Shown here piece after piece: positions 1,635 to 41,736 of a stretch of DNA of 64,000 bases (its first letter is position 1; each line of letters begins with the position of its first letter). The DNA is from a virus. Both the position numbers and the translations under genes were made by a program. The notes beneath the pieces are model-generated. The model saw nothing but the letters and a program-made list of their open reading frames with translations, was not told the DNA's origin and did not search any database. The DNA lies in IMG/VR virus record IMGVR_UViG_3300045988_112022. One strand, given 5' to 3'.

Positions 1635-1661
1635 TCGCGAGAAAAACAGCTTGTTTTATGA
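1635..1661 (+). promoter_or_regulatory. TCGCG-N16-TAATGA box, copy 1
   Basis: TCGCGAGAAAAACAGCTTGTTTTATGA, upstream of CDS 1688. Confidence 0.5.
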
Positions 1662-1687
1662 CAAAGAAAAAGAAAGGAGAATTACTT

Positions 1688-2529: not shown

Positions 2530-2556
2530 TCGTGGAATTTACAGTCACTTTAATGA
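2530..2556 (+). promoter_or_regulatory. TCGCG-N16-TAATGA box, copy 2 (TCGTG variant)
   Basis: TCGTGGAATTTACAGTCACTTTAATGA, upstream of CDS 2585. Confidence 0.45.
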
Positions 2557-2584
2557 AAAAACTTATTTCAAAGGAGAGATTGAG

Positions 2585-2828: not shown

Positions 2829-2855
2829 TCGCGTAGAAATCAGCCCCTTTTATGA
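2829..2855 (+). promoter_or_regulatory. TCGCG-N16-TAATGA box, copy 3
   Basis: TCGCGTAGAAATCAGCCCCTTTTATGA, upstream of CDS 2888. Confidence 0.5.
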
Positions 2856-2887
2856 GAAGAAAACATATTTTGAAGGAGGTTTTTATT

Positions 2888-3320: not shown

Positions 3321-3545
3321 ATGGTATATTTAGTTTTTCTTGGCGGAGTGTTTATAGGTGCTATTATCACTTGCGTTATTCATCAGAAAACATCTGCACA
3401 TGGATATTTTACCGTTACACCATATTCAGATGATGAGATTGCAGTTGATGAGGGATTCTATTCCGTGAAAGTATCCTTGCCAAAAGATGTAAACCTCGTG
3501 AATAAAGGCAGGATTATCTTACATAATTCCAATTCGCACAAATAA
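3321..3545 (+). CDS. small membrane-anchored protein
   Basis: Track ORF with GAGGAGG RBS and an N-terminal TM helix. Confidence 0.6.
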   Translation: MVYLVFLGGVFIGAIITCVIHQKTSAHGYFTVTPYSDDEIAVDEGFYSVKVSLPKDVNLVNKGRIILHNSNSHK

Positions 3546-3595
3546 CAGCTTCTTTTATGGAAACGTATTAATTTATTTTTAAGGAGGATTTCAAA

Positions 3596-5049: not shown

Positions 5050-5076
5050 TCGCTAAAATTACAAGCTCTTTAATGA
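5050..5076 (+). promoter_or_regulatory. TCGCG-N16-TAATGA box, copy 4 (TCGCT variant)
   Basis: TCGCTAAAATTACAAGCTCTTTAATGA, upstream of CDS 5101. Confidence 0.45.
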
Positions 5077-5100
5077 AAAAAATTGAAAGGAGAAACATCT

Positions 5101-5378: not shown

Positions 5379-5738
5379 ATGAGATATCATTACGAAAAAC
5401 CGGATCACTATACATCAATGTACGGACGAACTTATATTTGTGATCATCTGGTATACAGTCATTGTACATTATATAAAATCGGAGAAAAGGGTCTGGCTGT
5501 TATTCAGCAGCGTTATATTCCGGAAACAAAGTCAACATGTTGGACCGAAATTGATCCATGGCTGGTTGATGCTTTATATTTACATGAAGGTTTCAAAAAG
5601 TTCTTCGATGATCGTGCTGGAAAGTGCAACGATGGATTATATCCTACAACCAGTATCAGGCAGATTATGTGGGCTTTGAAGATGAAACCTTTGAAACGAG
5701 AACGCTGGGAAACCTGTTTCGATCGCCGGAGTATTTAG
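5379..5738 (+). CDS. hypothetical protein
   Basis: Track ORF of 119 aa. Weak RBS, no motif recognised. Confidence 0.55.
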   Translation: MRYHYEKPDHYTSMYGRTYICDHLVYSHCTLYKIGEKGLAVIQQRYIPETKSTCWTEIDPWLVDALYLHEGFKKFFDDRAGKCNDGLYPTTSIRQIMWALKMKPLKRERWETCFDRRSI

Positions 5739-5762
5739 CGAAAATTACATTCTGTATTATGA
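5736..5762 (+). promoter_or_regulatory. TCGCG-N16-TAATGA box, copy 5 (TAGCG variant)
   Basis: TAGCGAAAATTACATTCTGTATTATGA, upstream of CDS 5778. Confidence 0.4.
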
Positions 5763-5777
5763 AAGGAGTGATTATTT

Positions 5778-6029: not shown

Positions 6030-6055
6030 GGGTCCTAACAAGGGCTCTTTCTTTT
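6030..6055 (+). terminator. terminator, same family
   Basis: GGGTCCTAACAAGGGCTC followed by TTTCTTTT. Confidence 0.7.
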
Positions 6056-6081
6056 CGCGCGAATTACAGATGCTATTATGA
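6055..6081 (+). promoter_or_regulatory. TCGCG-N16-TAATGA box, copy 6
   Basis: TCGCGCGAATTACAGATGCTATTATGA, fused to the preceding T-run. Confidence 0.5.
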
Positions 6082-6095
6082 AAGGAGTGATTTAT

Positions 6096-6364: not shown

Positions 6365-6390
6365 GAGCCCTAGTTAGGACTCTTTCTTTT
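6365..6390 (+). terminator. terminator, inverted copy of the same hairpin
   Basis: GAGCCCTAGTTAGGACTC is the reverse complement of the family hairpin. AAAA on the left and a T-run on the right. Confidence 0.6.
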
Positions 6391-6416
6391 CGCGCGAATC
6401 ACAGGTGCTATTATGA
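6390..6416 (+). promoter_or_regulatory. TCGCG-N16-TAATGA box, copy 7
   Basis: TCGCGCGAATCACAGGTGCTATTATGA. Confidence 0.5.
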
Positions 6417-6445
6417 AAAGACTAATTTTATGGAGGTGCATATTT

Positions 6446-6646: not shown

Positions 6647-6665
6647 CCAGGGCTCTTTCTTTTTT
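6638..6665 (+). terminator. terminator, same family
   Basis: GAGTCCTAACCAGGGCTC followed by a T-run. Confidence 0.7.
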
Positions 6666-6691
6666 CGCGTTGAAAACAATTTCTCTAATGG
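6665..6691 (+). promoter_or_regulatory. TCGCG-N16-TAATGA box, copy 8
   Basis: TCGCGTTGAAAACAATTTCTCTAATGG. Confidence 0.45.
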
Positions 6692-6724
6692 AAAGATTAC
6701 TAATTTCAAAGGAGGGATTACATT

Positions 6725-6902: not shown

Positions 6903-6927
6903 GAGTCAGCAATGGCTCTTGCTTTTT
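6903..6927 (+). terminator. terminator (variant hairpin GAGTCA-GCAA-TGGCTC)
   Basis: Hairpin followed by TTGCTTTTT. Confidence 0.55.
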
Positions 6928-6953
6928 CGCGTATCTTACAACTCCTATAATGA
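6927..6953 (+). promoter_or_regulatory. TCGCG-N16-TAATGA box, copy 9
   Basis: TCGCGTATCTTACAACTCCTATAATGA. Confidence 0.5.
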
Positions 6954-6983
6954 GAAAATTATATTTTAAAGGAGGAATTTACT

Positions 6984-7282: not shown

Positions 7283-7309
7283 TCGCGAAATATACGCGGA
7301 CTATTATGA
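7283..7309 (+). promoter_or_regulatory. TCGCG-N16-TAATGA box, copy 10
   Basis: TCGCGAAATATACGCGGACTATTATGA. Confidence 0.5.
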
Positions 7310-7344
7310 AAGAATAAAACATTTAAATTTGCAGGAGGATCATT

Positions 7345-7585: not shown

Positions 7586-7602
7586 CCAGGGCTCTTTCTT
7601 TT
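7577..7602 (+). terminator. terminator, same family
   Basis: GAGTCCTAACCAGGGCTC followed by TTTCTTTT. Confidence 0.7.
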
Positions 7603-7628
7603 CGCGAAAAAACCATCTTCTTTAATGA
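7602..7628 (+). promoter_or_regulatory. TCGCG-N16-TAATGA box, copy 11
   Basis: TCGCGAAAAAACCATCTTCTTTAATGA. No ORF follows. Confidence 0.5.
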
Positions 7629-7757
7629 GAGAAAGAAGCGGCAGTAGTGAGTCGTGGGAGAATGTCCCACCAGCTGAGATGCTGTCACATAAGAACTAAG
7701 ACTGGGCGACTCCCAGGCAGGAAATGAACTGTATAAGACCACACTTTCTTTTTTTTT
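7627..7757 (+). ncRNA. candidate structured non-coding RNA (about 130 nt)
   Basis: Box-driven unit with no RBS or ORF. The 5' GAGAGAAAG (7627-7635) pairs with CTTTCTTTT (7744-7752) and is followed by a T-run. Internal hairpins: GTGGGA/TCCCAC, CAGC/GCTG, CTGGG/CCCAG. Confidence 0.35.
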
Positions 7758-7783
7758 CGTTAAATTTACAACCCATATTATGA
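7757..7783 (+). promoter_or_regulatory. TCGCG-N16-TAATGA box, copy 12 (TCGTT variant)
   Basis: TCGTTAAATTTACAACCCATATTATGA. Confidence 0.4.
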
Positions 7784-7800
7784 AGAAAGGAGAGATTAAT

Positions 7801-7991: not shown

Positions 7992-8010
7992 CAAGGGCTC
8001 TTTCTTTTCT
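7983..8010 (+). terminator. terminator, same family
   Basis: GAGTCCTAACAAGGGCTC followed by TTTCTTTTCT. Confidence 0.7.
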
Positions 8011-8036
8011 CGCGAAAAAATCAACTCCTTTAATGA
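8010..8036 (+). promoter_or_regulatory. TCGCG-N16-TAATGA box, copy 13
   Basis: TCGCGAAAAAATCAACTCCTTTAATGA. Confidence 0.5.
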
Positions 8037-8116
8037 GAGAAAGGCGGTTGACTATACCGCATAAACGCTAAGGGCGAGAAGGAATTAAAGACTTAGCACT
8101 TTCTCTTTTACTTTTT
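8035..8116 (+). promoter_or_regulatory. structured 5' leader / attenuator-like element before CDS 8140
   Basis: GAGAGAAAG (8035-8043) pairs with CTTTCTCTT (8099-8107), then TTACTTTTT. Inner hairpins: GCGGT/ACCGC and GCTAAG/CTTAGC. Confidence 0.35.
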
Positions 8117-8914: not shown

Positions 8915-8941
8915 TCGCGAGAATTCCAACGACTTTAACGG
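8915..8941 (+). promoter_or_regulatory. TCGCG-N16-TAATGA box, copy 14 (degenerate 3' block)
   Basis: TCGCGAGAATTCCAACGACTTTAACGG. Confidence 0.35.
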
Positions 8942-8959
8942 AAAGGAGGTATACTAGAA

Positions 8960-9128: not shown

Positions 9129-9165
9129 GTTTTAACAAAACTATGTTCATTTGAAAGGAGATATC

Positions 9166-9974: not shown

Positions 9975-10001
9975 TCGCGAAAAATACATATTGTTTAATG
10001 G
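9975..10001 (+). promoter_or_regulatory. TCGCG-N16-TAATGA box, copy 15
   Basis: TCGCGAAAAATACATATTGTTTAATGG. Confidence 0.45.
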
Positions 10002-10036
10002 AAAGAATATAAAAATCTGAAAGGAGATTATTTAAG

Positions 10037-11225: not shown

Positions 11226-11567
11226 ATGGAAGATCTAAAAGAGATTATTTTAAAAACTGAATACAGTAATAAATTCGATGAGATTAGAAAAAACCTCGTC
11301 GTGCAGTCATATTTCAAATACGGGAAAGCTTCAAGAAATTTCGTAGCAGGGTATGTGGATGCGATTGGATCGCTTAAAAAGTGTATTCAGAAATTTGAAG
11401 AAACAGGTAACTTAGAATATCTGGCAGACGCTGCAAACTATTGCATGTTCAGATACATGTATCCACAAACAGGAGAATATTTCAAGCATACTGATTCCAA
11501 CGAATCTGCCGGAATTGATGGTATGTCAGTAAAAGAAATCGAAGAGTTTAAAAAGGAGAACGAATAA
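11226..11567 (+). CDS. hypothetical protein, possibly an all-alpha NTP pyrophosphohydrolase (MazG/DUF550-like)
   Basis: KYGKASRNF...NLEYLADAANYCMF resembles the family signature. Weak, from memory. Confidence 0.5.
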   Translation: MEDLKEIILKTEYSNKFDEIRKNLVVQSYFKYGKASRNFVAGYVDAIGSLKKCIQKFEETGNLEYLADAANYCMFRYMYPQTGEYFKHTDSNESAGIDGMSVKEIEEFKKENE

Positions 11568-18187: not shown

Positions 18188-18214
18188 TCGCGGAGAAATC
18201 CTTTCCTGTTATGA
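18188..18214 (+). promoter_or_regulatory. TCGCG-N16-TAATGA box, copy 16
   Basis: TCGCGGAGAAATCCTTTCCTGTTATGA. Confidence 0.45.
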
Positions 18215-18227
18215 AAGGAGTGATTTT

Positions 18228-20015: not shown

Positions 20016-21244
20016 TGACAGATTTCTTACGTAATTATCAAATGGCAGCTGTGCATAAAATGAAAAACGGCTGTATTCTCAACGGGGGGACTGGTTCTGG
20101 TAAATCTAGGACCGGTCTCTATTATTATTTCAAAGAGAATGGTGGTAGCTTCCTTAATCAAGAATTTATTCCGATGAAAAATCCTCAGAATCTTTACATC
20201 ATTACAACGGCAATGAAACGAGATTCTCATGAATGGGATAGTGAACTGGCGAATTATAGAATATCTACAAACCCAGATAAAAATGAATTATATCCAGGAC
20301 AGACAGTAGTAATCGACTCTTGGAATAATATAAAGAAGTATATAGAAATAAAAGATGCGTTCTTTATATTTGATGAGGATAGAGTTACAGGATCTGGTGA
20401 ATGGGTAAAATCGTTTCAGAAAATCGCTAAAAACAACGACTGGATTATATTATCGGCAACTCCTGGCGATTGCTGGGCGGATTATATTCCGGTATTTGTG
20501 GCGAATGGGTTCTATAAAAATAAAACGGAATTTTGTAGAGAGCATGTGGTATATTCCAGATTTACCAAATATCCTCAGATAGACAGATATTTGAATGTAG
20601 GTAGACTAGTTAGACTGAGAAACAGAATACTGGTTGATATGGATTTTCAACGAACTACGGTACAGCATCATATGGATGTATATGCGACTTATGATATTCC
20701 TAAATACAAAGATGCTATAAGAAATCGTTGGGACCCATTTAAAAACGAGCCTATTCAGCAGGCATCTGGTCTTTGCTATGTTCTCAGAAGGATTGTAAAT
20801 ACGGATGAGTCAAGGGTTGTAGCTCTTATGGAGATATTAGAAAAAACTCCAAGGGCTATTATATTTTACAATTTTGACTATGAAAGAGAAATATTATTGC
20901 ATCTGTTTAGCGATGATGAATATATAGGTTACGAAGTAGCTGAATGGTCCGGACATGCTCATCAACCGGTACCATATGCAGATAGATGGATATATTTGGT
21001 TCAGTACACTGCTGGATGTGAGGGATGGAACTGCATTAGTACAGATACTATCATATTCTTCTCTCAAAATTACAGCTATAAAGTTACTGAGCAGGCGTGT
21101 GGACGAATAGATCGATTGAATACTCCATATCGCAATTTATATTTTTATCACATAAAGAGCAGATCTGGAATTGATATGGCAATTACCAAAGCCTTAAATA
21201 AGAAGAAAAAATTCAACGAAAGGAAGTTTGCTGGATGGGGGTAA
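20015..21244 (+). CDS. SF2 (DEAD/SNF2-like) helicase
   Basis: Motif I GGTGSGKS, motif II FIFDEDR, motif III SATPG, motif VI QACGRIDR. Confidence 0.8.
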   Translation: MTDFLRNYQMAAVHKMKNGCILNGGTGSGKSRTGLYYYFKENGGSFLNQEFIPMKNPQNLYIITTAMKRDSHEWDSELANYRISTNPDKNELYPGQTVVIDSWNNIKKYIEIKDAFFIFDEDRVTGSGEWVKSFQKIAKNNDWIILSATPGDCWADYIPVFVANGFYKNKTEFCREHVVYSRFTKYPQIDRYLNVGRLVRLRNRILVDMDFQRTTVQHHMDVYATYDIPKYKDAIRNRWDPFKNEPIQQASGLCYVLRRIVNTDESRVVALMEILEKTPRAIIFYNFDYEREILLHLFSDDEYIGYEVAEWSGHAHQPVPYADRWIYLVQYTAGCEGWNCISTDTIIFFSQNYSYKVTEQACGRIDRLNTPYRNLYFYHIKSRSGIDMAITKALNKKKKFNERKFAGWG

Positions 21245-21429
21245 AACTTGATCTAAATAAATTACACGCGATAATCAATAGAATCGCGGCGGAAAATCAT
21301 TTACCGCTTAATTATGATACGTTCAATGCTATTTGTAAAGGGTATGAGACTGGATATACACAGGCCTGCAATGATGCAATAAAAATGATGGACGAGAAAG
21401 GACTTCTACCACAGAATGGAGACAAATGA
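21235..21429 (+). CDS. hypothetical protein
   Basis: Track ORF, overlaps the helicase stop. Confidence 0.5.
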   Translation: MGVKLDLNKLHAIINRIAAENHLPLNYDTFNAICKGYETGYTQACNDAIKMMDEKGLLPQNGDK

Positions 21430-21598
21430 ATTCAAAGATGCTGTTATAGGTATTCCTAAAATTAAAAATGGTTCGCGGATCAGAATTGGCAGAGTCAGAA
21501 CCTTGAATATTAACGTAGATCATCACTTCAACTGGTTTCAGAAGAGAATGATTAAATGGTGTTTCGGTTTTACTGTGGAGGATTACAGTGAGGAATGA
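21416..21598 (+). CDS. hypothetical protein
   Basis: Track ORF. Confidence 0.45.
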   Translation: METNEFKDAVIGIPKIKNGSRIRIGRVRTLNINVDHHFNWFQKRMIKWCFGFTVEDYSEE

Positions 21599-21624
21599 CG
21601 CGAAAATCACAACTCCTTTAATGA
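21598..21624 (+). promoter_or_regulatory. TCGCG-N16-TAATGA box, copy 17 (ACGCG variant)
   Basis: ACGCGAAAATCACAACTCCTTTAATGA. Confidence 0.45.
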
Positions 21625-21641
21625 AAAGGAGGAATGGTGTT

Positions 21642-23146: not shown

Positions 23147-23311
23147 ATGAACGTAACAATTGGATGGATTTTGCTGTTAATCACCATGAGTGTATTCATA
23201 ACTTTTGTATTCGGATATGATTTGGATCTTAAAGATAAGATTATATGTATCGTGGGAACGGATACTCTTGTTATCTTACTCGCAGTTGGTGTGTATTTGA
23301 TAGCTGGATAG
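23147..23311 (+). CDS. 54-aa membrane peptide
   Basis: Not in the track. AAAGGAGAGGAG RBS. Product MNVTIGWILLLITMSVFITFVFGYDLDLKDKIICIVGTDTLVILLAVGVYLIAG. Confidence 0.5.
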   Translation: MNVTIGWILLLITMSVFITFVFGYDLDLKDKIICIVGTDTLVILLAVGVYLIAG

Positions 23312-25710: not shown

Positions 25711-25737
25711 TCGCTAAAAATACAGTTCCTTTAATGA
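25711..25737 (+). promoter_or_regulatory. TCGCG-N16-TAATGA box, copy 18 (TCGCT variant)
   Basis: TCGCTAAAAATACAGTTCCTTTAATGA. Confidence 0.45.
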
Positions 25738-25752
25738 AAGGAGTGATATTAT

Positions 25753-29270: not shown

Positions 29271-29297
29271 TCGCGTTGAAAACATCTCCTATAATGA
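29271..29297 (+). promoter_or_regulatory. TCGCG-N16-TAATGA box, copy 19
   Basis: TCGCGTTGAAAACATCTCCTATAATGA. Near-identical 5' half to copy 8. Confidence 0.5.
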
Positions 29298-29325
29298 GAA
29301 AATTATTTTAAGGAGGAATTTGGTT

Positions 29326-32700: not shown

Positions 32701-32836
32701 CCACTGTGTCGAAAAACTCACACGTGAAAATAACATCCCCTTTTATAGGGAGAAGATAATATATCGGTCAAAATCGGTCAATGTATTATCTTTTTATTTT
32801 TATGGATATTCAGCTCTATGAAAGGAGAAAGAGTTC

Positions 32837-33127
32837 ATGAAAGAAAATAAGTTTCAGGCAGATTTGAAAAAAGAGCTTAGAGCTATATTTCCTGGTTGCA
32901 TTGTAACCAAACTGGATTCGAGCGATATTCAGGGTATCCCCGATCTTCTTGTTTTATACAAAGACAAGTGGGCGGCTCTGGAAGTTAAGAAAAGTGCTAC
33001 GGCATCACATCGTCCGAATCAGGATTACTATGTTGCAAAAATGAACGCCATGTCATTTTCACGATTTATCTACCCAGAAAATAAGGAGGATGTTTTAGAT
33101 GAACTTCGTGAATCATTCAAAGCTTAG
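32837..33127 (+). CDS. VRR-NUC-like PD-(D/E)XK nuclease
   Basis: GIPDLLVLYKDKWAALEVKK (D...E-x-K). Confidence 0.65.
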   Translation: MKENKFQADLKKELRAIFPGCIVTKLDSSDIQGIPDLLVLYKDKWAALEVKKSATASHRPNQDYYVAKMNAMSFSRFIYPENKEDVLDELRESFKA

Positions 33128-33656
33128 TGGACTTCACGCACCATTCAGCCCAAGTCAGCCAGCATGGTTGAGATATAGTGATGAGAAAGCAATCGCAGTT
33201 CGACAGAACAAGAAAGCTGCAGAACTTGGCACACGCTTACATGCATGGGCAAAAGAAACTATTGATATGGGTATTAAACAGCCTCGCTCGAAGAAAACCT
33301 TATACGCATATGTAAACGATGCTATCGGTTTTCGCATGAGTACAGAGGTTGTTTTATATTATTCAGACAGATTCTTCGGAACTGCAGATGCGATTTGTTT
33401 CCGGAATAATAAGCTCAGAATCCATGATTTGAAGACTGGCGTCGGTCCAGTGCATATGGAGCAGCTTGAGGTGTATGCAGCGTTATTCTGTCTTGAATAT
33501 AAGATCAGACCAGGCGATATCGAGTTTGAACTCTGTATTTACCAGAATGATGAAGTAGTAGTATTCAACCCGACTGCAGAAGATATTCTGCCGATTATGG
33601 ATAAGATTGTTCATCTTGACAAGATACTTGCGGAATGTGATGCAGAGGAGGCATAA
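33099..33656 (+). CDS. PD-(D/E)XK (RecB/Cas4-like) nuclease family protein
   Basis: GTADAICFRNNKLRIHDLKTG...QLEVYAALF. Confidence 0.6.
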   Translation: MNFVNHSKLSGLHAPFSPSQPAWLRYSDEKAIAVRQNKKAAELGTRLHAWAKETIDMGIKQPRSKKTLYAYVNDAIGFRMSTEVVLYYSDRFFGTADAICFRNNKLRIHDLKTGVGPVHMEQLEVYAALFCLEYKIRPGDIEFELCIYQNDEVVVFNPTAEDILPIMDKIVHLDKILAECDAEEA

Positions 33657-33659
33657 CCG

Positions 33660-34205
33660 ATGACTGAATTCTATAACGGTTGGGAAGAAAATGAAGTATG
33701 GGTTAATCTTGAGCGTTTCCCGAAACATCAAATCAGCACATTCGGTAGAATACGGAATAAATGTAGCGGCCATATTCTCAAACCATTTTTGGACAGATAC
33801 GGTTATCTACGGGTTAGCATCGGTAATACCGATAATGTATACATACATCGTCTAATGTGTGAAACTTTTTATGGCGCACCAAAATTCGATCGAGCTCAAG
33901 TTAACCATATAGATTGCGATCGAGAAAATAACCACATATTTAATCTTGAATGGTGTTCAGCTAAAGATAACATAAAATGGGCTTGTGAACACGGAAAACT
34001 AGATTATAAAAAAGGGTTGAAAATGGCGGTTAAAGCCAACGTAAAACCTGTCCGGATAATAGAACTCGATAAAACCTTTTCGAGTGTAAAAGATTGTGCC
34101 AAATTTCTTCATATAAATCCGAATAGAGTAAGTAGATGTCTTATCGGATCAAGAAAAGGGCAACGTATACATGGATATCATATAGAGTACGCGGAGGCAG
34201 AATGA
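33660..34205 (+). CDS. HNH homing endonuclease (NUMOD4-like N-terminus, HNH_3-like core, C-terminal DNA-binding module)
   Basis: FPKHQISTFGRIRN..GYLRVSI..HRLMCETFYG..VNHIDCDRENNHIFNLEWCSAKDN. Confidence 0.8.
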   Translation: MTEFYNGWEENEVWVNLERFPKHQISTFGRIRNKCSGHILKPFLDRYGYLRVSIGNTDNVYIHRLMCETFYGAPKFDRAQVNHIDCDRENNHIFNLEWCSAKDNIKWACEHGKLDYKKGLKMAVKANVKPVRIIELDKTFSSVKDCAKFLHINPNRVSRCLIGSRKGQRIHGYHIEYAEAE

Positions 34206-37114
34206 TGAATAGTATAGTAGAAGAAATTGAATCATTTTTAGGATCAGCCTCTATGACAGATGAGGAATATCTGGCTCATTATGGTATGCCCCGCCGTTCC
34301 GGGCGATATCCTTGGGGGTCGGGGAAAAATGGCTATCAAAGCTCACGTGACTTCTTAGGTCGTGTTGAGCAGATGCGAAAATCTGGTTTTACATATACTG
34401 ATGAAAACGGTAAGAAATGGACTGGTGATAATGCGATTGCTAAATCACTTGGTTACAATTCTACCGATTTCCGAACAGTGTATGCGATTGCAAAAGACGA
34501 GCGTAGATCAGATATGGTTGCCACAGCCAAACGTCTCAGAGACAAAGAAGGAATGAACAATTCTGAGATTGGTCGAAAAATGGGAATCAATGAATCATCT
34601 GTTCGATCACTCCTTGATCCAAATTCCGAGTCAAGAATGAAGCAGGCCAGAGACACGGCCAAATTCTTGAAAGAACAGGTTGATAAAAAAGGCATGGTTG
34701 ATGTCGGTGCCGGTGTAAACAATGATCTGAAAATCACAAAAGAAAAACTGGATCAGGCATTGTTTATATTACAGGCTGAAGGAAACTATGAGGTTTATGG
34801 AGGTCGATTCTCACAGGTCACAAATAAAGGTCAGATGACGACTCAGAGAGTTCTTTGTAAACCAGGAACACCGCATAGTGCAATCTACGATTTTGATAAT
34901 GTCAAGACAGTCACTGATTATATTTCCAGAGATGATGGGAAGACCTATGAAAAGAAATTCACATATCCTGAAAGCTTAGATTCCAAGCGTCTTATGATTC
35001 GCTATAAAGAAGATGGCGGTATTGATAGAGATGGAACCGTTGAACTCAGGAGAAATGTACCGGATCTGTCGCTTGGCGAATCCAAATATTCTCAGGTCCG
35101 TATAATGGTTGACGGAAAGAAATATATCAAAGGCATGGCTGTCTATAAAGATGATAAAGACTTTCCACCAGGTGTCGATGTTATATTTAACACCAACAAG
35201 TCCAAGAGTGTTCCGAAACTGGAAGTTCTCAAAGATGTGAAACCAGATCCGGACAACCCCTTCGGCTCTCTTATTAAAGATGCCGATCAAGGCGGGCAGT
35301 ATTGGTATACCGACAAAAATGGTAAGAAGAAGCTCGGCCTTATTAATAAGCGATCCGATGAAGGCGATTGGACTGAATGGAAAGATGCTTTACCATCTCA
35401 GTTCTTATCCAAACAGTCAAAAGCTATGGCAGAAAAACAGCTTGGCATCGCTAAAGCAGACAAGCAGGCAGAATATGAAGCTATCATGGCTCTGACTAAT
35501 CCGACTGTAAAGAAATATTATCTTGATAAATTCGCAAGCAGTTGTGACTCAGCAGCCGTACATCTTAAAGCAGCCGCATTACCGGGTCAGAAATACCATG
35601 TTATTCTACCTGTCACATCTCTGAGTGAGAAAGAAGTATACGCCCCTGGATATCCTGATGGAAGTAAACTTGCTCTTGTTCGATATCCTCATGGTGGTAC
35701 ATTTGAGATTCCAATCTGTACAGTCAACAACAAAAACAAAGATGCTATCAAGATGATTGGAAAGGATTCTATCGACGCGATTGGTATCAACAGTAGAGTT
35801 GCTGAACGATTATCTGGAGCCGACTTCGATGGCGACACTGTAATGTGTATTCCCACTCATGATCGTGCCGGAAAAGTTAAGATCGCTAGTCGTCCGCCTC
35901 TTGAAGGGCTCGAGGGATTCGATCCTAAGATGGGTTATCAGGGCGAGAAGAAAACTGGATCTGATGGTAAAGAACATTGGTATCGAGACGGCAGAGAATA
36001 CCAGCTCATGAAGAAGACTGATACTGAGATGGGTAAAATCTCTAATCTGATTACCGATATGACTATCATTGGAGCTACCGATGATGAATTAGCTCGTGCT
36101 GTAAGACATAGCATGGTCGTCATCGATGCTGAGAAGCATCATCTGGATTACAAACAGAGTGAAAAAGACAACAACATTCAGGCACTAAAGCAGAAGTATC
36201 AGATCAAGGTCGACGAGAACGGGAAGATCAAATACGGCGGCGCATCCACCCTTATTTCCAGAGCCAAAGGAGAAGTTACTGTTGATAAGCGACAGGGAAC
36301 TCCTAAACCAAACCTCCCGGGTAAAGAATGGTATGATCCATCCAGACCTGACGGAGCTCTTATCTACAAGAAAGCTGACGACGCTACCTATACCGTCAAG
36401 AAAGTGGATAAGAAGACCGGTGAGGTAACGGAGGTAACTAAGAAGCGTACCGATAAGAGTAACCGTATGTCTGAAACTGATGACGCTATGACCTTGGTAT
36501 CTAAGTATAGACACCCAATGGAACTTGTGTATGCTGATTACGCTAATAGCATGAAAGCTATGGCCAACAAAGCAAGGGTTGAGTCCAGTAAAGCCGGTAA
36601 GATAGCCTACAGTAAGGATGCTAAGAGGAAGTATCAGGAAGAGTATGACAGTCTCACTAAGAAACTGGCGATAGCCGAATCTAATACACCTCGTGAACGT
36701 GCAGCCCAGCGTATGGCTAATGCTACCGTTCAGAGAAAGCAGAAAGCTGCTGAAGAAGCTGGTGTTAAGCTCAAACCGAAGGATGTTAAGAAAGCAAGTC
36801 AGCAAGCACTCACGAAAGCAAGAGAAGAAGTTGGCTCTGTTTCGAGAAGAGACCGAAACATCGTCATCACTGATAAAGAATGGGATGCTATACAGGCAGG
36901 TGCAGTCAGTGAATCCATACTCAAACGTGTTCTCAATAACTGTGATCCGGATTCTTTAAGACAAAGAGCAATGCCGAAAGAAACAAAAGTTCTTAATCAA
37001 GCAAAGATTAACAGAATCAAAGCGATGTCTGCATCGTACACAATTCAGCAGATTGCAGAAAAGCTTGGCGTTTCAACCTCAACAGTTTCCAAGTATTTGA
37101 AAGGAGCGAATTAG
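34202..37114 (+). CDS. candidate single-subunit two-barrel RNA polymerase (YonO/RdRP-like) with N- and C-terminal HTH modules
   Basis: ATG at 34202 overlaps the HNH stop (track ORF starts at 34136). LVRYPHGGTFEI...IGINSRVAERLSGADFDGDTVMCIP (DFDGD at 35822-35836) fits the beta-prime DPBB signature. DGKKYIKGMAVYKDDKDFPPGVDVIFNTN (about 35111-35200) fits the beta DPBB lysine block. HTH modules: NSEIGRKMGINESSVRSLL and YTIQQIAEKLGVSTSTVSKYLKG. Confidence 0.6.
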   Translation: MMNSIVEEIESFLGSASMTDEEYLAHYGMPRRSGRYPWGSGKNGYQSSRDFLGRVEQMRKSGFTYTDENGKKWTGDNAIAKSLGYNSTDFRTVYAIAKDERRSDMVATAKRLRDKEGMNNSEIGRKMGINESSVRSLLDPNSESRMKQARDTAKFLKEQVDKKGMVDVGAGVNNDLKITKEKLDQALFILQAEGNYEVYGGRFSQVTNKGQMTTQRVLCKPGTPHSAIYDFDNVKTVTDYISRDDGKTYEKKFTYPESLDSKRLMIRYKEDGGIDRDGTVELRRNVPDLSLGESKYSQVRIMVDGKKYIKGMAVYKDDKDFPPGVDVIFNTNKSKSVPKLEVLKDVKPDPDNPFGSLIKDADQGGQYWYTDKNGKKKLGLINKRSDEGDWTEWKDALPSQFLSKQSKAMAEKQLGIAKADKQAEYEAIMALTNPTVKKYYLDKFASSCDSAAVHLKAAALPGQKYHVILPVTSLSEKEVYAPGYPDGSKLALVRYPHGGTFEIPICTVNNKNKDAIKMIGKDSIDAIGINSRVAERLSGADFDGDTVMCIPTHDRAGKVKIASRPPLEGLEGFDPKMGYQGEKKTGSDGKEHWYRDGREYQLMKKTDTEMGKISNLITDMTIIGATDDELARAVRHSMVVIDAEKHHLDYKQSEKDNNIQALKQKYQIKVDENGKIKYGGASTLISRAKGEVTVDKRQGTPKPNLPGKEWYDPSRPDGALIYKKADDATYTVKKVDKKTGEVTEVTKKRTDKSNRMSETDDAMTLVSKYRHPMELVYADYANSMKAMANKARVESSKAGKIAYSKDAKRKYQEEYDSLTKKLAIAESNTPRERAAQRMANATVQRKQKAAEEAGVKLKPKDVKKASQQALTKAREEVGSVSRRDRNIVITDKEWDAIQAGAVSESILKRVLNNCDPDSLRQRAMPKETKVLNQAKINRIKAMSASYTIQQIAEKLGVSTSTVSKYLKGAN

Positions 37115-37118
37115 TTAA

Positions 37119-37391
37119 ATGGATGATTTCAGATTAACAACATTTGACAATCCTTACGATCCATTCGAACAGTTCACTCTTTGGTACTTGTTCGATACAG
37201 AAAAAGGTTACAACACTTGTGGAAAACTGGATCGTATTTCCAATTATTCTGACGACATGACAGAAAAAGAGGTCAATGATGAACATAATCGTGCAATCGA
37301 TGAGTTAATATCATTTGATTTCTTGAATATTTACAAAAAAGTTCCGCGAAATTCGAAAGTTGCGCTGGATTTAGGCGCTGCCCAGGTGTAA
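37119..37391 (+). CDS. hypothetical protein
   Basis: Track ORF. Confidence 0.6.
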   Translation: MDDFRLTTFDNPYDPFEQFTLWYLFDTEKGYNTCGKLDRISNYSDDMTEKEVNDEHNRAIDELISFDFLNIYKKVPRNSKVALDLGAAQV

Positions 37392-37407: not shown

Positions 37408-37441
37408 AGGGGGAGGGTCGCTAAAAAAGCACCCCCTCCCT
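37408..37441 (+). other. GC-rich hairpin
   Basis: AGGGGGAGGGT-N12-ACCCCCTCCCT (imperfect). Locally much more GC-rich than the surrounding sequence. Confidence 0.5.
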
Positions 37442-37447
37442 GCATCG

Positions 37448-37481
37448 CGCCGGTCTTCCGAATTTCCCCGGCGGGATTTTT
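37448..37481 (+). terminator. possible terminator
   Basis: CGCCGG-N14-CCGGCG followed by GGATTTTT. Confidence 0.4.
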
Positions 37482-37695: not shown

Positions 37696-38013
37696 ATGCC
37701 AAAGGTAGCAAAAACTGAACGGCGTCCAATGCTTACGCCGGAAGCAAAAGAAAACCAGATGATATCTCTGGCTATGGATTGCGCTGAAAGACAGATGATG
37801 GAAGGTACGGCTTCTTCGCAGGTTATAACTCATTTTTTAAAACTGGGTTCGGGAAAAGAAAGACTCGAGAGAGAAAAACTTGAAGAAGAGAACAAGCTTC
37901 TGAGAGCGAAGACAAAAGCGTTGGAAGAGAGTGCTGAATCTAAGGTTATGTATGAAGAAGTTCTTCGAGCTATGCGCGACTACAGCGGAGCAGGTGATCC
38001 GGATGAGTATTAA
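37696..38013 (+). CDS. terS: terminase small subunit (putative)
   Basis: 105 aa. ENQMISLAMDCAERQMMEGTASSQVITHFLKLGS followed by a coiled coil. Lies at the head of the packaging module. Confidence 0.6.
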   Translation: MPKVAKTERRPMLTPEAKENQMISLAMDCAERQMMEGTASSQVITHFLKLGSGKERLEREKLEEENKLLRAKTKALEESAESKVMYEEVLRAMRDYSGAGDPDEY

Positions 38014-38419
38014 GACATATTCTGAGTTGATCACATTTCCAACTTTTAAAGAACGATACAAGTACCTTCGGATCGGCGGTGTAGTTGGTCAGGAGACGTT
38101 CGGATTCGACAGATATTTGAATCAGCTTTTCTATAAGTCGCCGGAATGGTTGTCGGTAAGAGATCAGGTGATTTTTCGAGACAGTGGGTGCGATCTGGGG
38201 ATTCCTGGGCGAGAAATCTATAGCAAAATTCTGGTTCATCATATGAATCCGATCACGAAAGAGGATATTCTCAAGCGAAGTGATTTGTTGCTGGACCCGG
38301 AATATCTGATTTGCACTGTCAAAAGAACACATGACGCAATTCACTATGGGGATGATTCCATATTATGGAGCGATCCTGTAGAACGATGTAGAAATGATAC
38401 TTGTCCATGGAAGAAATAA
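38003..38419 (+). CDS. terminase-associated HNH endonuclease
   Basis: In-frame ATG at 38003 within track ORF 37931-38419. ILVHHMNPITKEDI...THDAIHYG. Confidence 0.75.
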   Translation: MSIKTYSELITFPTFKERYKYLRIGGVVGQETFGFDRYLNQLFYKSPEWLSVRDQVIFRDSGCDLGIPGREIYSKILVHHMNPITKEDILKRSDLLLDPEYLICTVKRTHDAIHYGDDSILWSDPVERCRNDTCPWKK

Positions 38420-38433
38420 AGAGGAGTAGCTTG

Positions 38434-38775
38434 ATGAATGAAAGTATTCTAATATCGATCAAGGCACAACTGGGTATTCAGGAAGAGTATACAGCTTTTG
38501 ACCAGCAGCTTATTATGCACATCAATTCGGTGTTTATGGTTTTAAAGCAGCTTGGAGTAGGTCCTGCGGCTGGTTTCACTATTTCAGATAAAACAGCTAC
38601 ATGGAATGATTTTCTCTCATCCGATAAGAACCTCGAAGCAACGAAGTCTTATGTCGGCATGAGAGTGAGAATGCTGTTCGATCCGCCAACAACTTCAATT
38701 GTTGCCGAAAGTATGAATCGTATGATCAATGAGTTTGAGTGGCGACTTAACTCGGAAGCGGAAAGTGATAATTAA
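38434..38775 (+). CDS. gp6-like head-tail connector / QLRG-family protein
   Basis: Track ORF 38401-38775. AGAGGAG RBS precedes the ATG at 38434. N-terminal SIKAQLGI..FD..L..HIN. Confidence 0.5.
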   Translation: MNESILISIKAQLGIQEEYTAFDQQLIMHINSVFMVLKQLGVGPAAGFTISDKTATWNDFLSSDKNLEATKSYVGMRVRMLFDPPTTSIVAESMNRMINEFEWRLNSEAESDN

Positions 38776-39410
38776 TCTAAAATTCCCTTGAAGAAAACAT
38801 CTTGGGATTTGGCGGCAATAGCTGAGGTTCCGACAAAATCAAATCCAGCTCCAACCAAACCGCCAACAAATGGAACCATTTTTCCAAGATTAATTATACC
38901 TTTGGTTCCAAATTTTGTTATAAATCGCTGACCAACTTTCTGGTTAATTTTGGTTAAAACTTCCCCAGGGATTTTCTTGATCATGCTTATGGTAAATTTG
39001 TTGGTAAATTGAACTCCCGCTTCACGGCAGATTTTTGAAACAGAAGCGCCAGTAAGACATACGTACGCCATAGTTTGAACTTCATCATCGGAAGGATCGT
39101 AGCCAGCCAGAACGGCAATAGTTGCGATCATACGAAGTTGTATATACCATACGCTTGCTAAATTAGCAGGAATCGCCACCGGAAGAGTTAATATTCCGCC
39201 AAGACTTGTTATAAATCCGGATGTGGAACATTTCATAATTTGCCATTTCGCAAAAGCAGCGGTAGCTTTTTCGGCATCACCGTATTTATTAAGATACTGC
39301 TCGGCTATTTCATAACAATTTGGTGTGTTAGGTAAACCATTAAGCGCAGCTTCGTAACATTTATTCAATGCACTCATCACTTGATCTTCGGTTAAAGCGA
39401 GTTTTGACAT
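38772..39410 (-). CDS. EcsC-family protein (reverse-oriented moron)
   Basis: Track ORF 38772-39428. GGAAGGAG RBS favours MSKLAL (complement of 39408-39410). Gly-rich GGLVGAGFDFVGTSAIA and overall EcsC-like pattern. Confidence 0.65.
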   Translation of the reverse strand: MSKLALTEDQVMSALNKCYEAALNGLPNTPNCYEIAEQYLNKYGDAEKATAAFAKWQIMKCSTSGFITSLGGILTLPVAIPANLASVWYIQLRMIATIAVLAGYDPSDDEVQTMAYVCLTGASVSKICREAGVQFTNKFTISMIKKIPGEVLTKINQKVGQRFITKFGTKGIINLGKMVPFVGGLVGAGFDFVGTSAIAAKSQDVFFKGILD

Positions 39411-39498
39411 ATGTATATCTCCTTCCAATACGATGATTGTATTGTAACAAGAGACGAATGTGAATGCAAGACAGTATGATAGAAATGAGGTGATATAA

Positions 39499-39960
39499 AT
39501 GGGAGATACAGAATTTTTAGCCCATCATGGTGTCCTTAACATGAAATGGGGAGTTCGACGATATCAGAACAAAGACGGAAGTCTCACTAGAGCCGGACAG
39601 AAAAAAGCTAAAAAAATGAAAGATAAGTATACGAAGCTCACCGGAAAACAGCTGAGAAGGAATCCGACTAAAAAATCGTCCACTCAAAAACCGAAGCAAA
39701 AAAGTATCAGCGAAATGTCTGATGAAGAAATTCGTACTAAAATCAACAGAATCAAACTGGAGCAGGAACTTGGGAGTTTGAGTCCTAAGAAAATTTCCCG
39801 CGGTAAAGCTTTTATAGATAAAGTAGCAAAAGACATAATCGCTCCAGCTGCAACAGATGTGGCTAAGCAGGTTGTAAATTCAAAACTTGCCGATGCGGCT
39901 AACCGTATATTCGGCTTAAGCGGAGATCTGAAAGTCCATACCAACAATAAGAAAAAATAG
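39499..39960 (+). CDS. highly basic protein with HHG..MKWGVR N-terminal motif
   Basis: MGDTEFLAHHGVLNMKWGVRRYQ, followed by a Lys-rich region. Confidence 0.7.
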   Translation: MGDTEFLAHHGVLNMKWGVRRYQNKDGSLTRAGQKKAKKMKDKYTKLTGKQLRRNPTKKSSTQKPKQKSISEMSDEEIRTKINRIKLEQELGSLSPKKISRGKAFIDKVAKDIIAPAATDVAKQVVNSKLADAANRIFGLSGDLKVHTNNKKK

Positions 39961-39972
39961 GAGTAACAACAA

Positions 39973-41736
39973 ATGGCATTATCGAACACCGCCGTACCGA
40001 AGTATTATGGCATGTTTCGAGATGCCGTAATCCGGAGAGAAATCTCGGTTTGTGAAACGGTTTCATTGGAAATGAATCGAATCGATCAGCTTATCGATAA
40101 TCAAAGATATTGGTATGATGATCGGGCAGTTGAAGGATTTATCCACTATTGTGAGAATGAGCTCACTCTAACGGACGGTAGCGATTTATATCTCCTCGAC
40201 TCTTTCAAGCTATGGGCTGAACAGATTTTTGGATGGTATTACTTCATTGAGCGCAGTGTTTTTGTTCCGTCAGAAACAGGCAGTGGTGGTCACTACGAAA
40301 TGAGACGGATTAAGAAAAGGTTAACTACCAAGCAGTATTTAATTGTTGCTCGAGGCGCTGCGAAATCAATGTATGCGTCCTGTTTGCAGAATTACGAACT
40401 GAACGTCAACACCGCGACAACTCATCAAGTAACAACTGCTCCGACTATGCCTCAGGCCGAAGAGGTTATGTCGCCAATTCGAACCGCCATCACCAGAGCA
40501 AGAGGGCCGTTGTATAAGTTTCTCACTGAAGGCTCGCTTCAGAACACGACTGGATCTAAGGCGAATCGTGTTAAACTGGCTTCGACTAAGAAAGGAATTC
40601 AGAATTTTTTAACCGGATCACTTTTGGAAGTCAGACCCATGTCCATTGATAAACTGCAGGGATTGCGTGTCAAGATTGCAACTGTTGACGAATGGCTTTC
40701 CGGAGATATACGGGAGGACGTCATCGGAGCATTGGAACAAGGTGCCGCAAAAGAGCAGAGTGGAGGTTCAAATGATGATTACCTTATAGTTGCCATCAGC
40801 TCAGAAGGAACTGTCCGTAATGGATCTGGCGATACAATCAAAATGGAATTGATGAAGATACTCAAAGGTGAGTATAAAGCTCCGCATACTTCCATTTGGT
40901 GGTATAAATTAGACTCCATTGATGAAGTTAACGATCCGGATAAATGGATTAAAGCAAATCCGAATCTCGGAAAGACTGTTACTTATGAAACTTATCAGCT
41001 GGATGTGGAACGAGCTGAGAACAACCCCGCAGTCCGCAATGATATTCTTGCCAAACGTTTTGGTATTCCTATGGAGGGATACACATATTACTTCACATAT
41101 GAAGAAACTCTTCCGCATCGACGAAGAGAGTATTGGCAGATGCCTTGCTCTATGGGTGCGGATTTATCCCAGGGAGATGACTTCTGTTCATTTACATTTT
41201 TATTCCCGTTATCGAATGGTGCTTTCGGTATAAAAACCCGAAATTACATATCCGAGCTCACTCTGAGCAAACTTCCCACAGCAATGCGAATCAAATACAA
41301 CGATTTTATGAAAGAGGGCAGTCTTATTGTTATGCCCGGAAATATTCTCGACATGATGCAGGTGTATGAAGATCTTGACAATTTCATAGCCGAAGCAGAA
41401 TACGACGTTCGTTGTTTGGGATATGACCCGTATAATGCCAGAGACTTCGTGGAGAGGTGGGAACGGGAAAATGGACCGTTTGGAATTGAAAAAGTCATCC
41501 AGGGAGCTAAGACAGAATCAGTCCCGCTTGGTGAGCTGAAGAAACTGTCTGAGGAAAGAATGCTTATTTTTGATGAGGCTCTTATGTCATTTACCATGGG
41601 TAACTGCATCGCAATAGAAGACACAAATGGAAACCGTAAATTGTTGAAACGACGACATGAAGCGAAGATCGATGCTGTCGCGGCTATGATGGATGCTTTT
41701 GTCGCCTTCAAATTAAACAGAGAAGCTTTTGAATAA
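39973..41736 (+). CDS. terL: terminase large subunit
   Basis: 587 aa. Walker A-like VARGAAKSMYAS, Walker B IATVDEW, C-terminal nuclease-like GADLSQGDD and KIDAVAAMMDA. Confidence 0.85.
   Translation: MALSNTAVPKYYGMFRDAVIRREISVCETVSLEMNRIDQLIDNQRYWYDDRAVEGFIHYCENELTLTDGSDLYLLDSFKLWAEQIFGWYYFIERSVFVPSETGSGGHYEMRRIKKRLTTKQYLIVARGAAKSMYASCLQNYELNVNTATTHQVTTAPTMPQAEEVMSPIRTAITRARGPLYKFLTEGSLQNTTGSKANRVKLASTKKGIQNFLTGSLLEVRPMSIDKLQGLRVKIATVDEWLSGDIREDVIGALEQGAAKEQSGGSNDDYLIVAISSEGTVRNGSGDTIKMELMKILKGEYKAPHTSIWWYKLDSIDEVNDPDKWIKANPNLGKTVTYETYQLDVERAENNPAVRNDILAKRFGIPMEGYTYYFTYEETLPHRRREYWQMPCSMGADLSQGDDFCSFTFLFPLSNGAFGIKTRNYISELTLSKLPTAMRIKYNDFMKEGSLIVMPGNILDMMQVYEDLDNFIAEAEYDVRCLGYDPYNARDFVERWERENGPFGIEKVIQGAKTESVPLGELKKLSEERMLIFDEALMSFTMGNCIAIEDTNGNRKLLKRRHEAKIDAVAAMMDAFVAFKLNREAFE

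Follow-up and report, generated by a model that had tools for sequence, protein, structure and literature searches.

Probable two-barrel RNA polymerases of phages

YonO of SPbeta is a processive DNA-dependent RNA polymerase (RNAP) which transcribes the late genes of this phage, the question of promoter recognition by YonO alone having been left open (Forrest et al., PMC5467207). A protein of Lactococcus phage 1706 was placed among five distantly related 'YonO-like' families, which contain the eight invariant residues common to all two-barrel RNAPs (Ruprich-Robert and Thuriaux, NAR 2010, PMC2919709). The same family was described as a signature gene of a supergroup of actinophages and Firmicutes phages, with an HHpred probability of 95.7% for the Pfam RNA-dependent RNA polymerase (RdRP) domain when the family alignment was used, a DxDGD loop and helix-turn-helix (HTH) domains at both termini (Koert et al., bioRxiv 2021, recommended by PCI Genomics, 10.1101/842583). 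Two-barrel enzymes also include gp66 of the crAss-like phage phi14:2 and the tape-measure-fused RNAP of Thermus phage P23-45 (10.1101/2020.03.07.982082; PMC10770324). Here, we describe a polymerase-like gene (34202..37114, + strand; 970 amino acids, aa) in the IMG/VR virus record IMGVR_UViG_3300045988_112022, a stretch of 64,000 nucleotides (nt), hereafter the window, which represents the genome of a tailed phage whose genes lie essentially all on the + strand. By sequence, the gene product is a new member of the bioinformatically known phage 1706 family. The first-pass annotation, made from the letters alone, had called it a single-chain, YonO-like two-barrel RNAP with its own HTH modules, an inference that was right but already in print, because the two papers on the family describe it. 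What is new here is a 29-bp candidate promoter, conserved in phages of hosts from different phyla, which recurs in phages that carry a polymerase gene of this family. We consider it probable (about 0.6) that the gene encodes the phage's own DNA-dependent RNAP, a single-chain two-barrel enzyme which is self-targeted to these boxes.

The homology to the phage 1706 ORF75 family (PHROG 4291; FP_oengus AUV56548.1), which includes the right-end 'HTH DNA-binding domain protein' of Arthrobacter AM/AU-type, Gordonia, Streptomyces and Rhodococcus phages, spans the full length of the window protein at 36-62% identity, and the PHROG 4291 profile, labelled 'RNA-dependent RNA polymerase', is matched end to end (E = 0, 1243 bits, aa 16-969 on profile positions 4-908 of 909). 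Members share with the window protein the GRYPWGSG N-terminal motif, the two HTH ends and the catalytic motifs, as well as the place of the gene, after the VRR-Nuc and Cas4-like nuclease genes and before a PHROG 4303 gene and the genome end. The window copy differs in an extra HNH gene before the polymerase gene and ~17 extra N-terminal residues, but in nothing essential.

The family is widespread. A tblastn search recovered homologues (~36-62% identity) in 251 sequenced phages, the match being full length in 249, with hosts from the genera Arthrobacter, Gordonia, Streptomyces, Rhodococcus, Curtobacterium, Microbacterium, Lactococcus (phages 1706 and P092) and Faecalibacterium. At least 8000 family clusters at 90% identity are present in the metagenome protein database; at 50% identity, 879 clusters were found (E <= 1e-30; HMMER, 1.84 billion representatives), many of them from human gut samples and nearly all 890-1080 aa long, with matches that extend from around residue 20 to the C-terminal end. 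GenBank names for the family vary from 'HTH DNA-binding domain protein' and 'RNA-dependent RNA polymerase' to 'structural protein' and 'hypothetical', and for so common a family a better label than the first two would be useful. The annotated start of the Streptomyces phage HotFries homologue, gp56 (40664), truncates the conserved N-terminus; the upstream stretch 40515-40663 encodes ..EALAHYGVLRRSGRYPWGSG.., and the true start lies earlier.

Fold and catalytic residues

The mechanically called open reading frame (ORF) begins at position 34136. Initiation at 34202, or at the ATG next to it (34205), has GGAGG (34193-34197) in front of it and makes the gene overlap the stop codon of the preceding HNH gene, for which reason 34202-37114 is the sensible product. 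The sequence blocks noted at first pass are borne out: DFDGD (nt 35822-35836) corresponds to residues 541-545 and closes a RYPHGG...GADFDGD segment in which R494-Y-P496-H497 lies 47 residues before D541, and the KYIKG block, given as about 230 residues upstream, is found as QVR300IMVDGKKYIK310G, 231 residues upstream of DFDGD. The former segment belongs to barrel 2, a beta-prime-like double-psi beta-barrel (aa ~464-552; 35591..35857, + strand) with R494-x-P496-H497 and the metal-binding loop D541-F-D543-G-D545. Barrel 1 is a beta-subunit-like double-psi beta-barrel region (aa ~264-345; 34991..35236, + strand) which contains D277, R300 and K310 and has a beta-strand pattern in the structural model.

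In an alignment of 52 homologues with 45-83% identity to the window protein, D277, R300, K310, R494, P496, D541, D543 and D545 are invariant in 52/52 sequences. Of the two elements proposed for a conservation check, DFDGD and the lysine of the KG block (K310), the three aspartates and the lysine are thus invariant in the 52 homologues, as is the K310-G311 pair. The D, Q-V-R, K-G, R-x-P-H and S-G-A-D-F-D-G-D elements are invariant too in seven phage proteins which share 36-44% identity with it.

An AlphaFold2 model was obtained with a mean predicted local distance difference test (pLDDT) score of 77.3 and a predicted template modelling (pTM) score of 0.58. Foldseek searches with this model against the PDB, a check suggested by the first-pass annotation, gave five matches at E <= 0.001, all of them two-barrel RdRPs, namely, three entries of QDE-1 (E 1.4e-7 to 7.4e-7, probability 1.00), maize RDR2 (E 1.6e-5) and Arabidopsis RDR2 (E 4.6e-4), after which Rpb1 and beta-prime subunits were matched weakly. 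The significant Foldseek matches listed include no crAss or P23-45 polymerase. In BFVD, a database of predicted viral structures, the best matches were models of phage 'RNA dependent RNA polymerase' proteins. The likeness to QDE-1 and RDR2 (PDB 7y7t, 7w82, 7roz), the best structural matches, extends to the DxDGD loop and the R-x-P strand, but the identity is ~11%, and these eukaryotic silencing enzymes lack HTH domains. The superfamily residues of QDE-1 are R962 and P964 of the R-x-P strand and D1007, D1009 and D1011 of the DxDxD metal loop (PMC2919709), and the barrel-1 counterparts of D277, R300 and K310 are D709, R738 and K743. The spacing from the arginine to the first aspartate is 47 residues in the window protein, versus 45 in QDE-1 and 43 in YonO.

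Comparison with YonO relied on a profile of 22 YonO homologues, whose own invariant residues include D249, R266, K271, R492, P494, D535, D537 and D539. Region-restricted hhalign placed the eight mapped residues in register with these, and the barrel-2 strand with YonO R492/P494/H495, at scores that are not significant: the barrel-1 pairing of D277/R300/K310 with D249/R266/K271 is weak (pairwise P 0.023, probability 2%), and barrel 2 aligned with a non-significant probability of 11%. The assignment of D277, R300 and K310 as the barrel-1 catalytic set is accordingly a weak one, suggested by conservation and register, not by a significant alignment. Membership in the YonO family was rejected because the hhalign alignments to YonO, although in the expected register, lack significance (probability 0.5-11%).

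With QDE-1 and RDR2 as the sole confident PDB matches of the model and the eight mapped residues invariant, the idea of a single-chain two-barrel polymerase is supported, and the window protein is very probably a two-barrel nucleotidyl-transferase. It is a two-barrel polymerase of the YonO/QDE-1 class that belongs to a sister family and is not a YonO orthologue; the label 'YonO-like' thus stands with respect to the two-barrel class and the register of the residues, but not as a claim of significant sequence kinship. Both YonO and the window protein are phage-encoded single chains of 800-1000 aa with the same order of barrels and the eight key residues in register, and both genes lie just upstream of late packaging and head genes. 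By contrast, YonO carries four C-terminal cysteines, C799, C802, C816 and C819, which are invariant in its 22 homologues and probably make up a zinc ribbon, and its only recorded Pfam domain is RdRP, whereas the window family has HTH domains at both ends, the GRYPWGSG motif and no invariant cysteines.

Helix-turn-helix domains at both ends

The N-terminal HTH (aa 106-138, ..MNNSEIGRKMGINESSVRSLL; 34517..34615, + strand) matches HTH_28 over aa 116-138 with 23.8 bits, just under the cut-off of 25 bits; E131, S132, R135 and L138 are invariant, and the recognition helix is kept across clades. The C-terminal DNA-binding region (36866..37105, + strand) consists of a helical module, ITDKEWDAIQAGAVS.. 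(aa 889-925), and an HTH, YTIQQIAEKLGVSTSTVSKYLKG (aa 944-968). E893, W894, A896-Q898, G900 and A901 are invariant, and the region forms helices in the model. The terminal HTH scores above the Pfam cut-offs of HTH_23 (E 1.2e-8, 34.9 bits), Sigma70_r4 (E 5.7e-8, 32.6 bits versus a cut-off of 24.1), Sigma70_r4_2 and HTH_3. Judged from conservation and profile matches, both HTH ends are real and kept across the family, in agreement with the first-pass annotation. The description of these segments as sigma-region-4-like holds insofar as HTH domains are fused to the polymerase, but a specific relationship to region 4 was not established: Sigma70_r4_2, HTH_3 and HTH_24 score like Sigma70_r4 on the same 24 C-terminal residues, and Foldseek matches of the model to sigma factors have probabilities of 0.2-0.3.

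A 29-bp promoter-like box in the window

The first-pass annotation had pointed to a TCGCG-N16-TAATGA box as a candidate template element. With at most one mismatch, this box has 16 matches in the window, all on the + strand, versus 1.5 expected, and it proved to be a 29-bp element, TCGCR-N6-ACA-N4-YTATAATGAGA. A position weight matrix (PWM) found 21 sites on the + strand and 0 on the - strand, all within 1.6-32.8 kb. A T-rich, terminator-like stretch precedes many boxes, and a Shine-Dalgarno sequence and an ATG follow nearly all of them within 2-35 nt.

The boxes, all on the + strand, differ in the searches by which they were recovered. Perfect matches to the consensus derived from an Arthrobacter phage (see below) are located at 6927..6955 and 29271..29299. 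Sites recovered by the motif, the PWM and the Arthrobacter consensus lie at 2530..2558, 2829..2857, 5050..5078, 6055..6083, 6390..6418, 6665..6693, 7283..7311, 7602..7630, 8010..8038, 21598..21626 and 25711..25739, and those recovered by the motif and the PWM at 1635..1663, 9975..10003 and 18188..18216, the last one after the DNA polymerase/primase gene. The boxes at 3534..3562, 5736..5764, 7757..7785 and 8915..8943 were found by the PWM only. Finally, a weak variant, ACGTGAAAATAACATCCCCTTTTATAGGG (32722..32750; 14.5 bits with the PWM), lies upstream of the nuclease-polymerase operon.

The box was also considered as an ordinary sigma-A promoter, and this was rejected: there is no -35 element 16-18 bp upstream, a TTTACA-like block lies 5 bp from the TATAAT-like block, and 13 of the 20 strong window boxes have T instead of the essential A at the would-be -11 position. 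Use of the ATG inside TAATGA as a start codon was likewise discarded as coincidental for a few ORF calls, with a Shine-Dalgarno sequence and another ATG 10-35 nt downstream. In 32-40 kb, scanning for consensus promoters and terminators produced no signal above background, and the box is not mentioned in the literature searched.

Conservation of the box in other phages

The same element recurs in phages that carry the polymerase gene. Lactococcus phage 1706 has 12 boxes on the + strand at 24.0-46.5 kb (0.48 expected), with the consensus.cacAtgTTTTACAta..CTATAGTAGAa; Streptomyces phage HotFries has five exact boxes and one with one mismatch, on the + strand at 22.7-27.0 kb (0.01 expected), with the consensus TCGCA.GtTTT.C..Gc.tTATAaTGAGA; and Arthrobacter phage GantcherGoblin has nine boxes on the + strand (0.00 expected), with the consensus TCGCR-N6-ACA-N4-YTATAATGAGA. 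When the GantcherGoblin consensus was run on the window, it retrieved 13 sites, two of them perfect, versus 0.11 expected. In an alignment of the site sets from the window, 1706 and HotFries, the register of the box is the same. Variants of the box include the 1706-type cCACA/TAGTAG and TCGCR/TAATGAGA. A 50-kb SPbeta segment contains no box.

For a broader sample, 80 loci of the 591 or more IMG/VR relatives (52-99% identity) were scored with a matrix built from four phages. Matches to the box numbered 171 on the gene strand versus three on the other strand and were present in 71/80 loci. Their distribution is strongly regional: 170 fall into the 603 kb upstream of the polymerase ORFs, none into the 224 kb of the ORFs themselves and one into the 374 kb downstream, which consists mostly of structural genes. 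Among the 72 loci whose upstream DNA was long enough, 64 show a box directly ahead of the VRR-Nuc/exonuclease/polymerase operon, 700-1300 bp from the start of the polymerase gene; the usual variant at this position is ..ACATgCCCTTTTATGAgA, and its counterpart in the window is the weak site at 32722. The box is thus conserved across phyla, in phages of Actinobacteria to Firmicutes that carry the polymerase gene.

The 3' part of the box (..CTATAGTGAGACCCC in HotFries, e.g. 23150-23185; CACTATAGTAGA in 1706) resembles the T7 promoter core, ..CACTATAGGGAGACC. The polymerases are unrelated, and this likeness may reflect convergence, with an AT-rich block for melting and a purine-rich start behind it.

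A proposed phage-specific transcription system

We propose that for catalysis the enzyme would rely on D277, R300 and K310 from barrel 1 and on the D541-x-D543-G-D545 metal loop from barrel 2, and would choose promoters by its own HTH modules (aa 106-138 and aa 889-968), with no sigma factor. The target would be the 29-bp box, TCGCR-N6-ACA-N4-YT(A/T)TAATGA(G/A)A, with ~20 copies on the coding strand of the window phage; the boxes would serve the small early genes, the replication genes and the polymerase operon that they front, the structural half being without boxes. That the enzyme reads the boxes appears somewhat more probable than the opposite. Since the polymerase operon itself would be box-driven, the first enzyme molecules need a source, and they could arrive with the virion, in the manner of the N4 and crAss-like virion RNAPs. 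Another possibility is that the operon, located at the right genome end, enters the cell and is read first; as a general rule in cos/pac siphoviruses, ejection begins with the end that was packaged last.

The N-terminal motif, YLAHYGMPRRSGRYPWGSG (aa 23-41; 34268..34324, + strand), is a candidate interaction or virion-incorporation peptide. H26, G28 and S33-G41 are invariant in the 52 homologues, and the region is unstructured in the model, with pLDDT below 50 for aa 1-34 and 41-43. Because it is invariant yet unstructured in the model, the motif would suit a docking peptide. The first-pass annotation had seen it in two other proteins of the window. One of these, encoded by the gene at 39499-39960, does resemble it, weakly: the LAH[HY]G..G.RRY similarity is the best non-self match in the window, at a non-significant E of 0.38. 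A window-wide search with a hidden Markov model gave no third carrier. The protein in question (39499..39960, + strand; 153 aa), encoded just upstream of the large terminase gene, belongs to DUF7211 (Pfam PF23847, E 1.7e-8), and its N-terminus, EFLAHHGVLNMKWGVRRYQ, is the part that resembles the polymerase motif. The polymerase N-terminus itself was rejected as a DUF7211 domain, with no match for the window, 1706 and GantcherGoblin proteins and 14.3 bits versus a cut-off of 27 for that of phage ReqiPoco6. In phage 1706, orf7, located before the terminase gene and labelled 'structural protein' in GenBank, has a DUF7211-like start, ..LQHRGVIGMRWG.., similar to ..LQHYGTKRHSGRYPWGSG.. of the polymerase, a resemblance that is not statistically supported. 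The ReqiPoco6 homologue of the polymerase is named structural protein in UniRef, an indirect indication.

Starts with the DUF7211 motif (..LxHxGxxGxKWGVRRY..) occur in small proteins encoded on either side of the large terminase gene, with up to three copies per genome. Besides 1706 orf7, examples are found in the relative L011 (14531-15004 and 16798-17190) and in MT835495 (L009; 7206, 7749 and 11151). These small proteins may be capsid-internal or packaging proteins.

The working likeness to the virion RNAPs of crAss-like phages (gp66), N4 and P23-45 would consist in delivery with the DNA for early transcription, and for the present family the hint of virion presence is the annotation of the 1706 protein. 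The N4 virion RNAP is a T7-like right-hand enzyme. Delivery of the polymerase in the virion is conceivable, at odds that we put a little short of even. The full scenario, in which a self-sufficient, sigma-independent RNAP recognizes the 29-bp promoter with its own HTH modules, is packaged via the N-terminal GRYPWGSG peptide and is injected to start infection, is more doubtful still.

The T7-type systems offer a functional analogy only, as their polymerase fold is unrelated. In T7, a contiguous, phage-specific promoter of 25-30 bp stands before many genes and ends in TATA followed by a purine-rich start. Middle promoters of T4 that depend on MotA/AsiA provide another functional analogy, with a -10-like block and a phage-specific upstream block which replaces the -35 element, but there it is the host polymerase that initiates, with an activator. 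If the proposed enzyme does read the box, one promoter grammar would work in hosts ranging from Actinobacteria to Firmicutes, since enzyme and specificity both come with the phage, and the family would represent a minimal, portable, promoter-specific relative of the cellular RNA polymerases. Should the link hold, it would also provide a compact orthogonal transcription system and a living case in which initiation-factor-like HTH modules are part of a two-barrel polymerase, with implications for the origin of sigma/TFB-type factor use. How ~100-kDa single-chain enzymes of the YonO class find promoters is a question for the whole class, and this family, with built-in DNA-binding domains, a defined 29-bp candidate promoter and culturable phages of Lactococcus, Arthrobacter, Gordonia and Streptomyces, makes it testable.

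Alternative explanations

Several observations weigh against a self-targeted, DNA-dependent polymerase. At the level of the fold, the global TM-scores of the Foldseek matches are low (0.23-0.32); hhalign of the family profile gave a probability of 1.1% against YonO alone and 0.5% (E 0.11) against the 22-sequence YonO profile; PDB chains searched with the full protein, the 52-sequence profile and the barrel-2 sub-profile yielded no polymerase, only HTH proteins or chance DxDGD matches; and the Pfam RdRP domain (PF05183) stays below threshold (11.1 versus 23.8 bits, E 0.15), with only the DFDGD stretch aligned. As to the boxes, none is present in 33-64 kb, where the polymerase, packaging, head and tail genes reside, which leaves late transcription unexplained, and in MT835495, which at 62% identity is the closest relative in GenBank, 70 kb contain only two boxes, both just upstream of the polymerase operon, with no other repeated intergenic element. 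MT835495 is an unverified scaffold, the last 20 kb of which are compositionally different, and it may be chimeric or lack the early region. The 'structural protein' label of phage 1706 orf75, the polymerase homologue, is a GenBank annotation and indicates virion presence only indirectly. Finally, no biochemistry or transcript mapping for any member of the 1706-type family was found in the literature searched, which, on experiments with the family, box sequences, DUF7211 and virion proteomics, yielded nothing beyond the two bioinformatic papers (PMC2919709, 10.1101/842583).

The box also contains a TATAAT-like block, and by analogy with the MotA/AsiA-dependent middle promoters of T4, host sigma-A RNAP aided by a phage activator stays a candidate reader of the boxes. 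This would fit an enzyme that acts as a late polymerase in the manner of YonO, the boxes being read by host RNAP, alone or with a small phage activator, and the phage enzyme, itself produced from one of them, transcribing the structural genes that start just past the genome junction from another promoter. YonO transcribes only the SPbeta late operon, just upstream of which it is encoded (yonO, yonN, yonK ... terminase, portal; PMC5467207), and the polymerase gene of the window is likewise penultimate before the cos junction, beyond which the packaging and head genes follow. A box before the polymerase operon in most relatives would be natural if the host enzyme reads the boxes, and with the late region devoid of boxes, something else must drive the late genes. 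However, the box has no -35 element at a workable distance and mostly lacks the key -11 A, and a three-block, 29-bp element kept in register across phages of Arthrobacter, Streptomyces, Lactococcus and gut Firmicutes is hard to reconcile with recognition by differing host sigma factors. Moreover, 37.4-39.5 kb showed no repeated motif that could be a late promoter, and between the polymerase operon and the late genes lie terminator-like hairpins. We regard a YonO-style late polymerase, the main rival, as unlikely. A DNA-binding regulator or replication enzyme, that is, an activator or origin binder which acts through the HTH domains and has a core that makes short RNAs (primers or regulatory RNAs) or is catalytically idle, would agree with the 'helix-turn-helix DNA binding domain protein' name in most GenBank records and with the location of the gene in a replication/recombination module, beside nucleases and a helicase, to which it was indeed assigned (Koert et al., 10.1101/842583); QDE-1, for its part, makes RNA from single-stranded DNA (PMC9508822). 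Yet an idle core would drift, whereas the eight mapped residues of the catalytic set are invariant at 45-83% identity and across phyla, a simple activator needs no conserved core of ~600 residues, and for a role in priming, the phage already has a primase-polymerase (13961-18184, PHROG 4210), all of which renders this explanation improbable. We consider it very improbable that the protein is a true RdRP, which would serve regulation or counter-defence by making double-stranded or antisense RNA on transcripts of the phage or the host. Among solved folds, those of the eukaryotic RdRPs QDE-1 and RDR2 are indeed the closest, PHROG 4291 bears the RdRP label, and RNA amplification was listed among the possibilities by Ruprich-Robert and Thuriaux (PMC2919709), but the name derives only from the resemblance to the Pfam RdRP domain; YonO, the sole relative from bacteria or phages to have been tested, depends on DNA (PMC5467207), and DNA templates are used by QDE-1 too (PMC9508822). 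HTH domains of a kind that binds double-stranded DNA, together with a conserved DNA box, suit a DNA template better.

Operon, neighbouring genes and genome junction

The polymerase gene probably belongs to one operon with the genes upstream of it (32837..34205, + strand; PHROG 93, 3953 and 59), which, according to the PHROG scan, encode a VRR-Nuc-like endonuclease (32837-33127), a Cas4/RecB-type exonuclease (33099-33656) and an HNH endonuclease (33660-34205), all on the + strand. Seven phages have a fixed order of helicase, HNH, VRR-Nuc, Cas4/RecB-type exonuclease and polymerase genes followed by the right genome end. The window has the same order plus the extra HNH gene, which is inserted between the exonuclease and polymerase genes that abut in relatives. 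On the 3' side, a small partner gene (37119..37391, + strand; 90 aa) matches PHROG 4303 (E 4e-33). A PHROG 4303 gene of ~80 codons is annotated between the polymerase gene and the genome end in six of the seven phages, contig89 being the exception, and was called in a metagenomic relative too.

The probable genome terminus lies at 37411..37480 (+ strand), with a cos junction near 37456/37457, a G-rich/C-rich hairpin and terminator-like sequence. The junction, ..GGGAGGGTCGC..CCCCCTCCCTGCATCGCGCCGGTCT|TCCGAATTTCCCC.. (in its longer form, GGGAGGGTCGC..CCCCCTCCCTGCATCGCGCCGGTCT|TCCGAATTTCCCCGGCGGGATTTTTCC), matches the right ends of 1706, HotFries, GantcherGoblin, ReqiPoco6, Burley and P092 and the left ends of 1706 and HotFries; the right-end sequence common to those phages, ..GGGGAGGGGTC.CGC...CCCCCCTCTGCATCGCCGCCCT, recurs at 37411-37480 of the window. 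Since right- and left-end sequences meet here, the window crosses a cos-type junction, with the polymerase gene penultimate in the linear genome, which implies that the source assembly was circularised or concatemeric, or that the contig is permuted. Many metagenomic contigs end 300-450 bp past the polymerase gene.

The statement that no other RNAP subunit is visible in the window holds for the 30 larger ORFs scanned against PHROGs, which include no sigma factor either. No tRNA or Rfam family was found in the window. A second HNH gene (37931-38419) is found beside those for the connector and the terminase, the usual place in cos phages whose packaging depends on an HNH protein. Between the connector and DUF7211 genes, 724 bp (38775-39499) are without an ORF on the + strand, an interval that is not present in the relative L011, and the 218-codon ORF on its minus strand has no PHROG match. 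In the box-rich early region, three PHROG 2152 paralogues (8140-8913, 9151-9972 and 11567-12499) each have an N-terminal hydrophobic segment, and the third matches Pfam DUF6353. The 82%-identical relative L011 carries a reverse-transcriptase gene (RVT_1; 20530-21621) between the terminase and portal genes, which is absent from the corresponding part of the window and may belong to a diversity-generating retroelement. Long non-coding segments with repeats are located near the polymerase gene in two phages: directly 5' of it in phage 1706 (51634-52081, L001 3553-4000; repeats AAAACTTCGGGA) and upstream of the VRR-Nuc gene in GantcherGoblin (L016 31039-31349; GCCCAC/AGTGGGC-type repeats). These repeats may represent regulatory sites or an origin.

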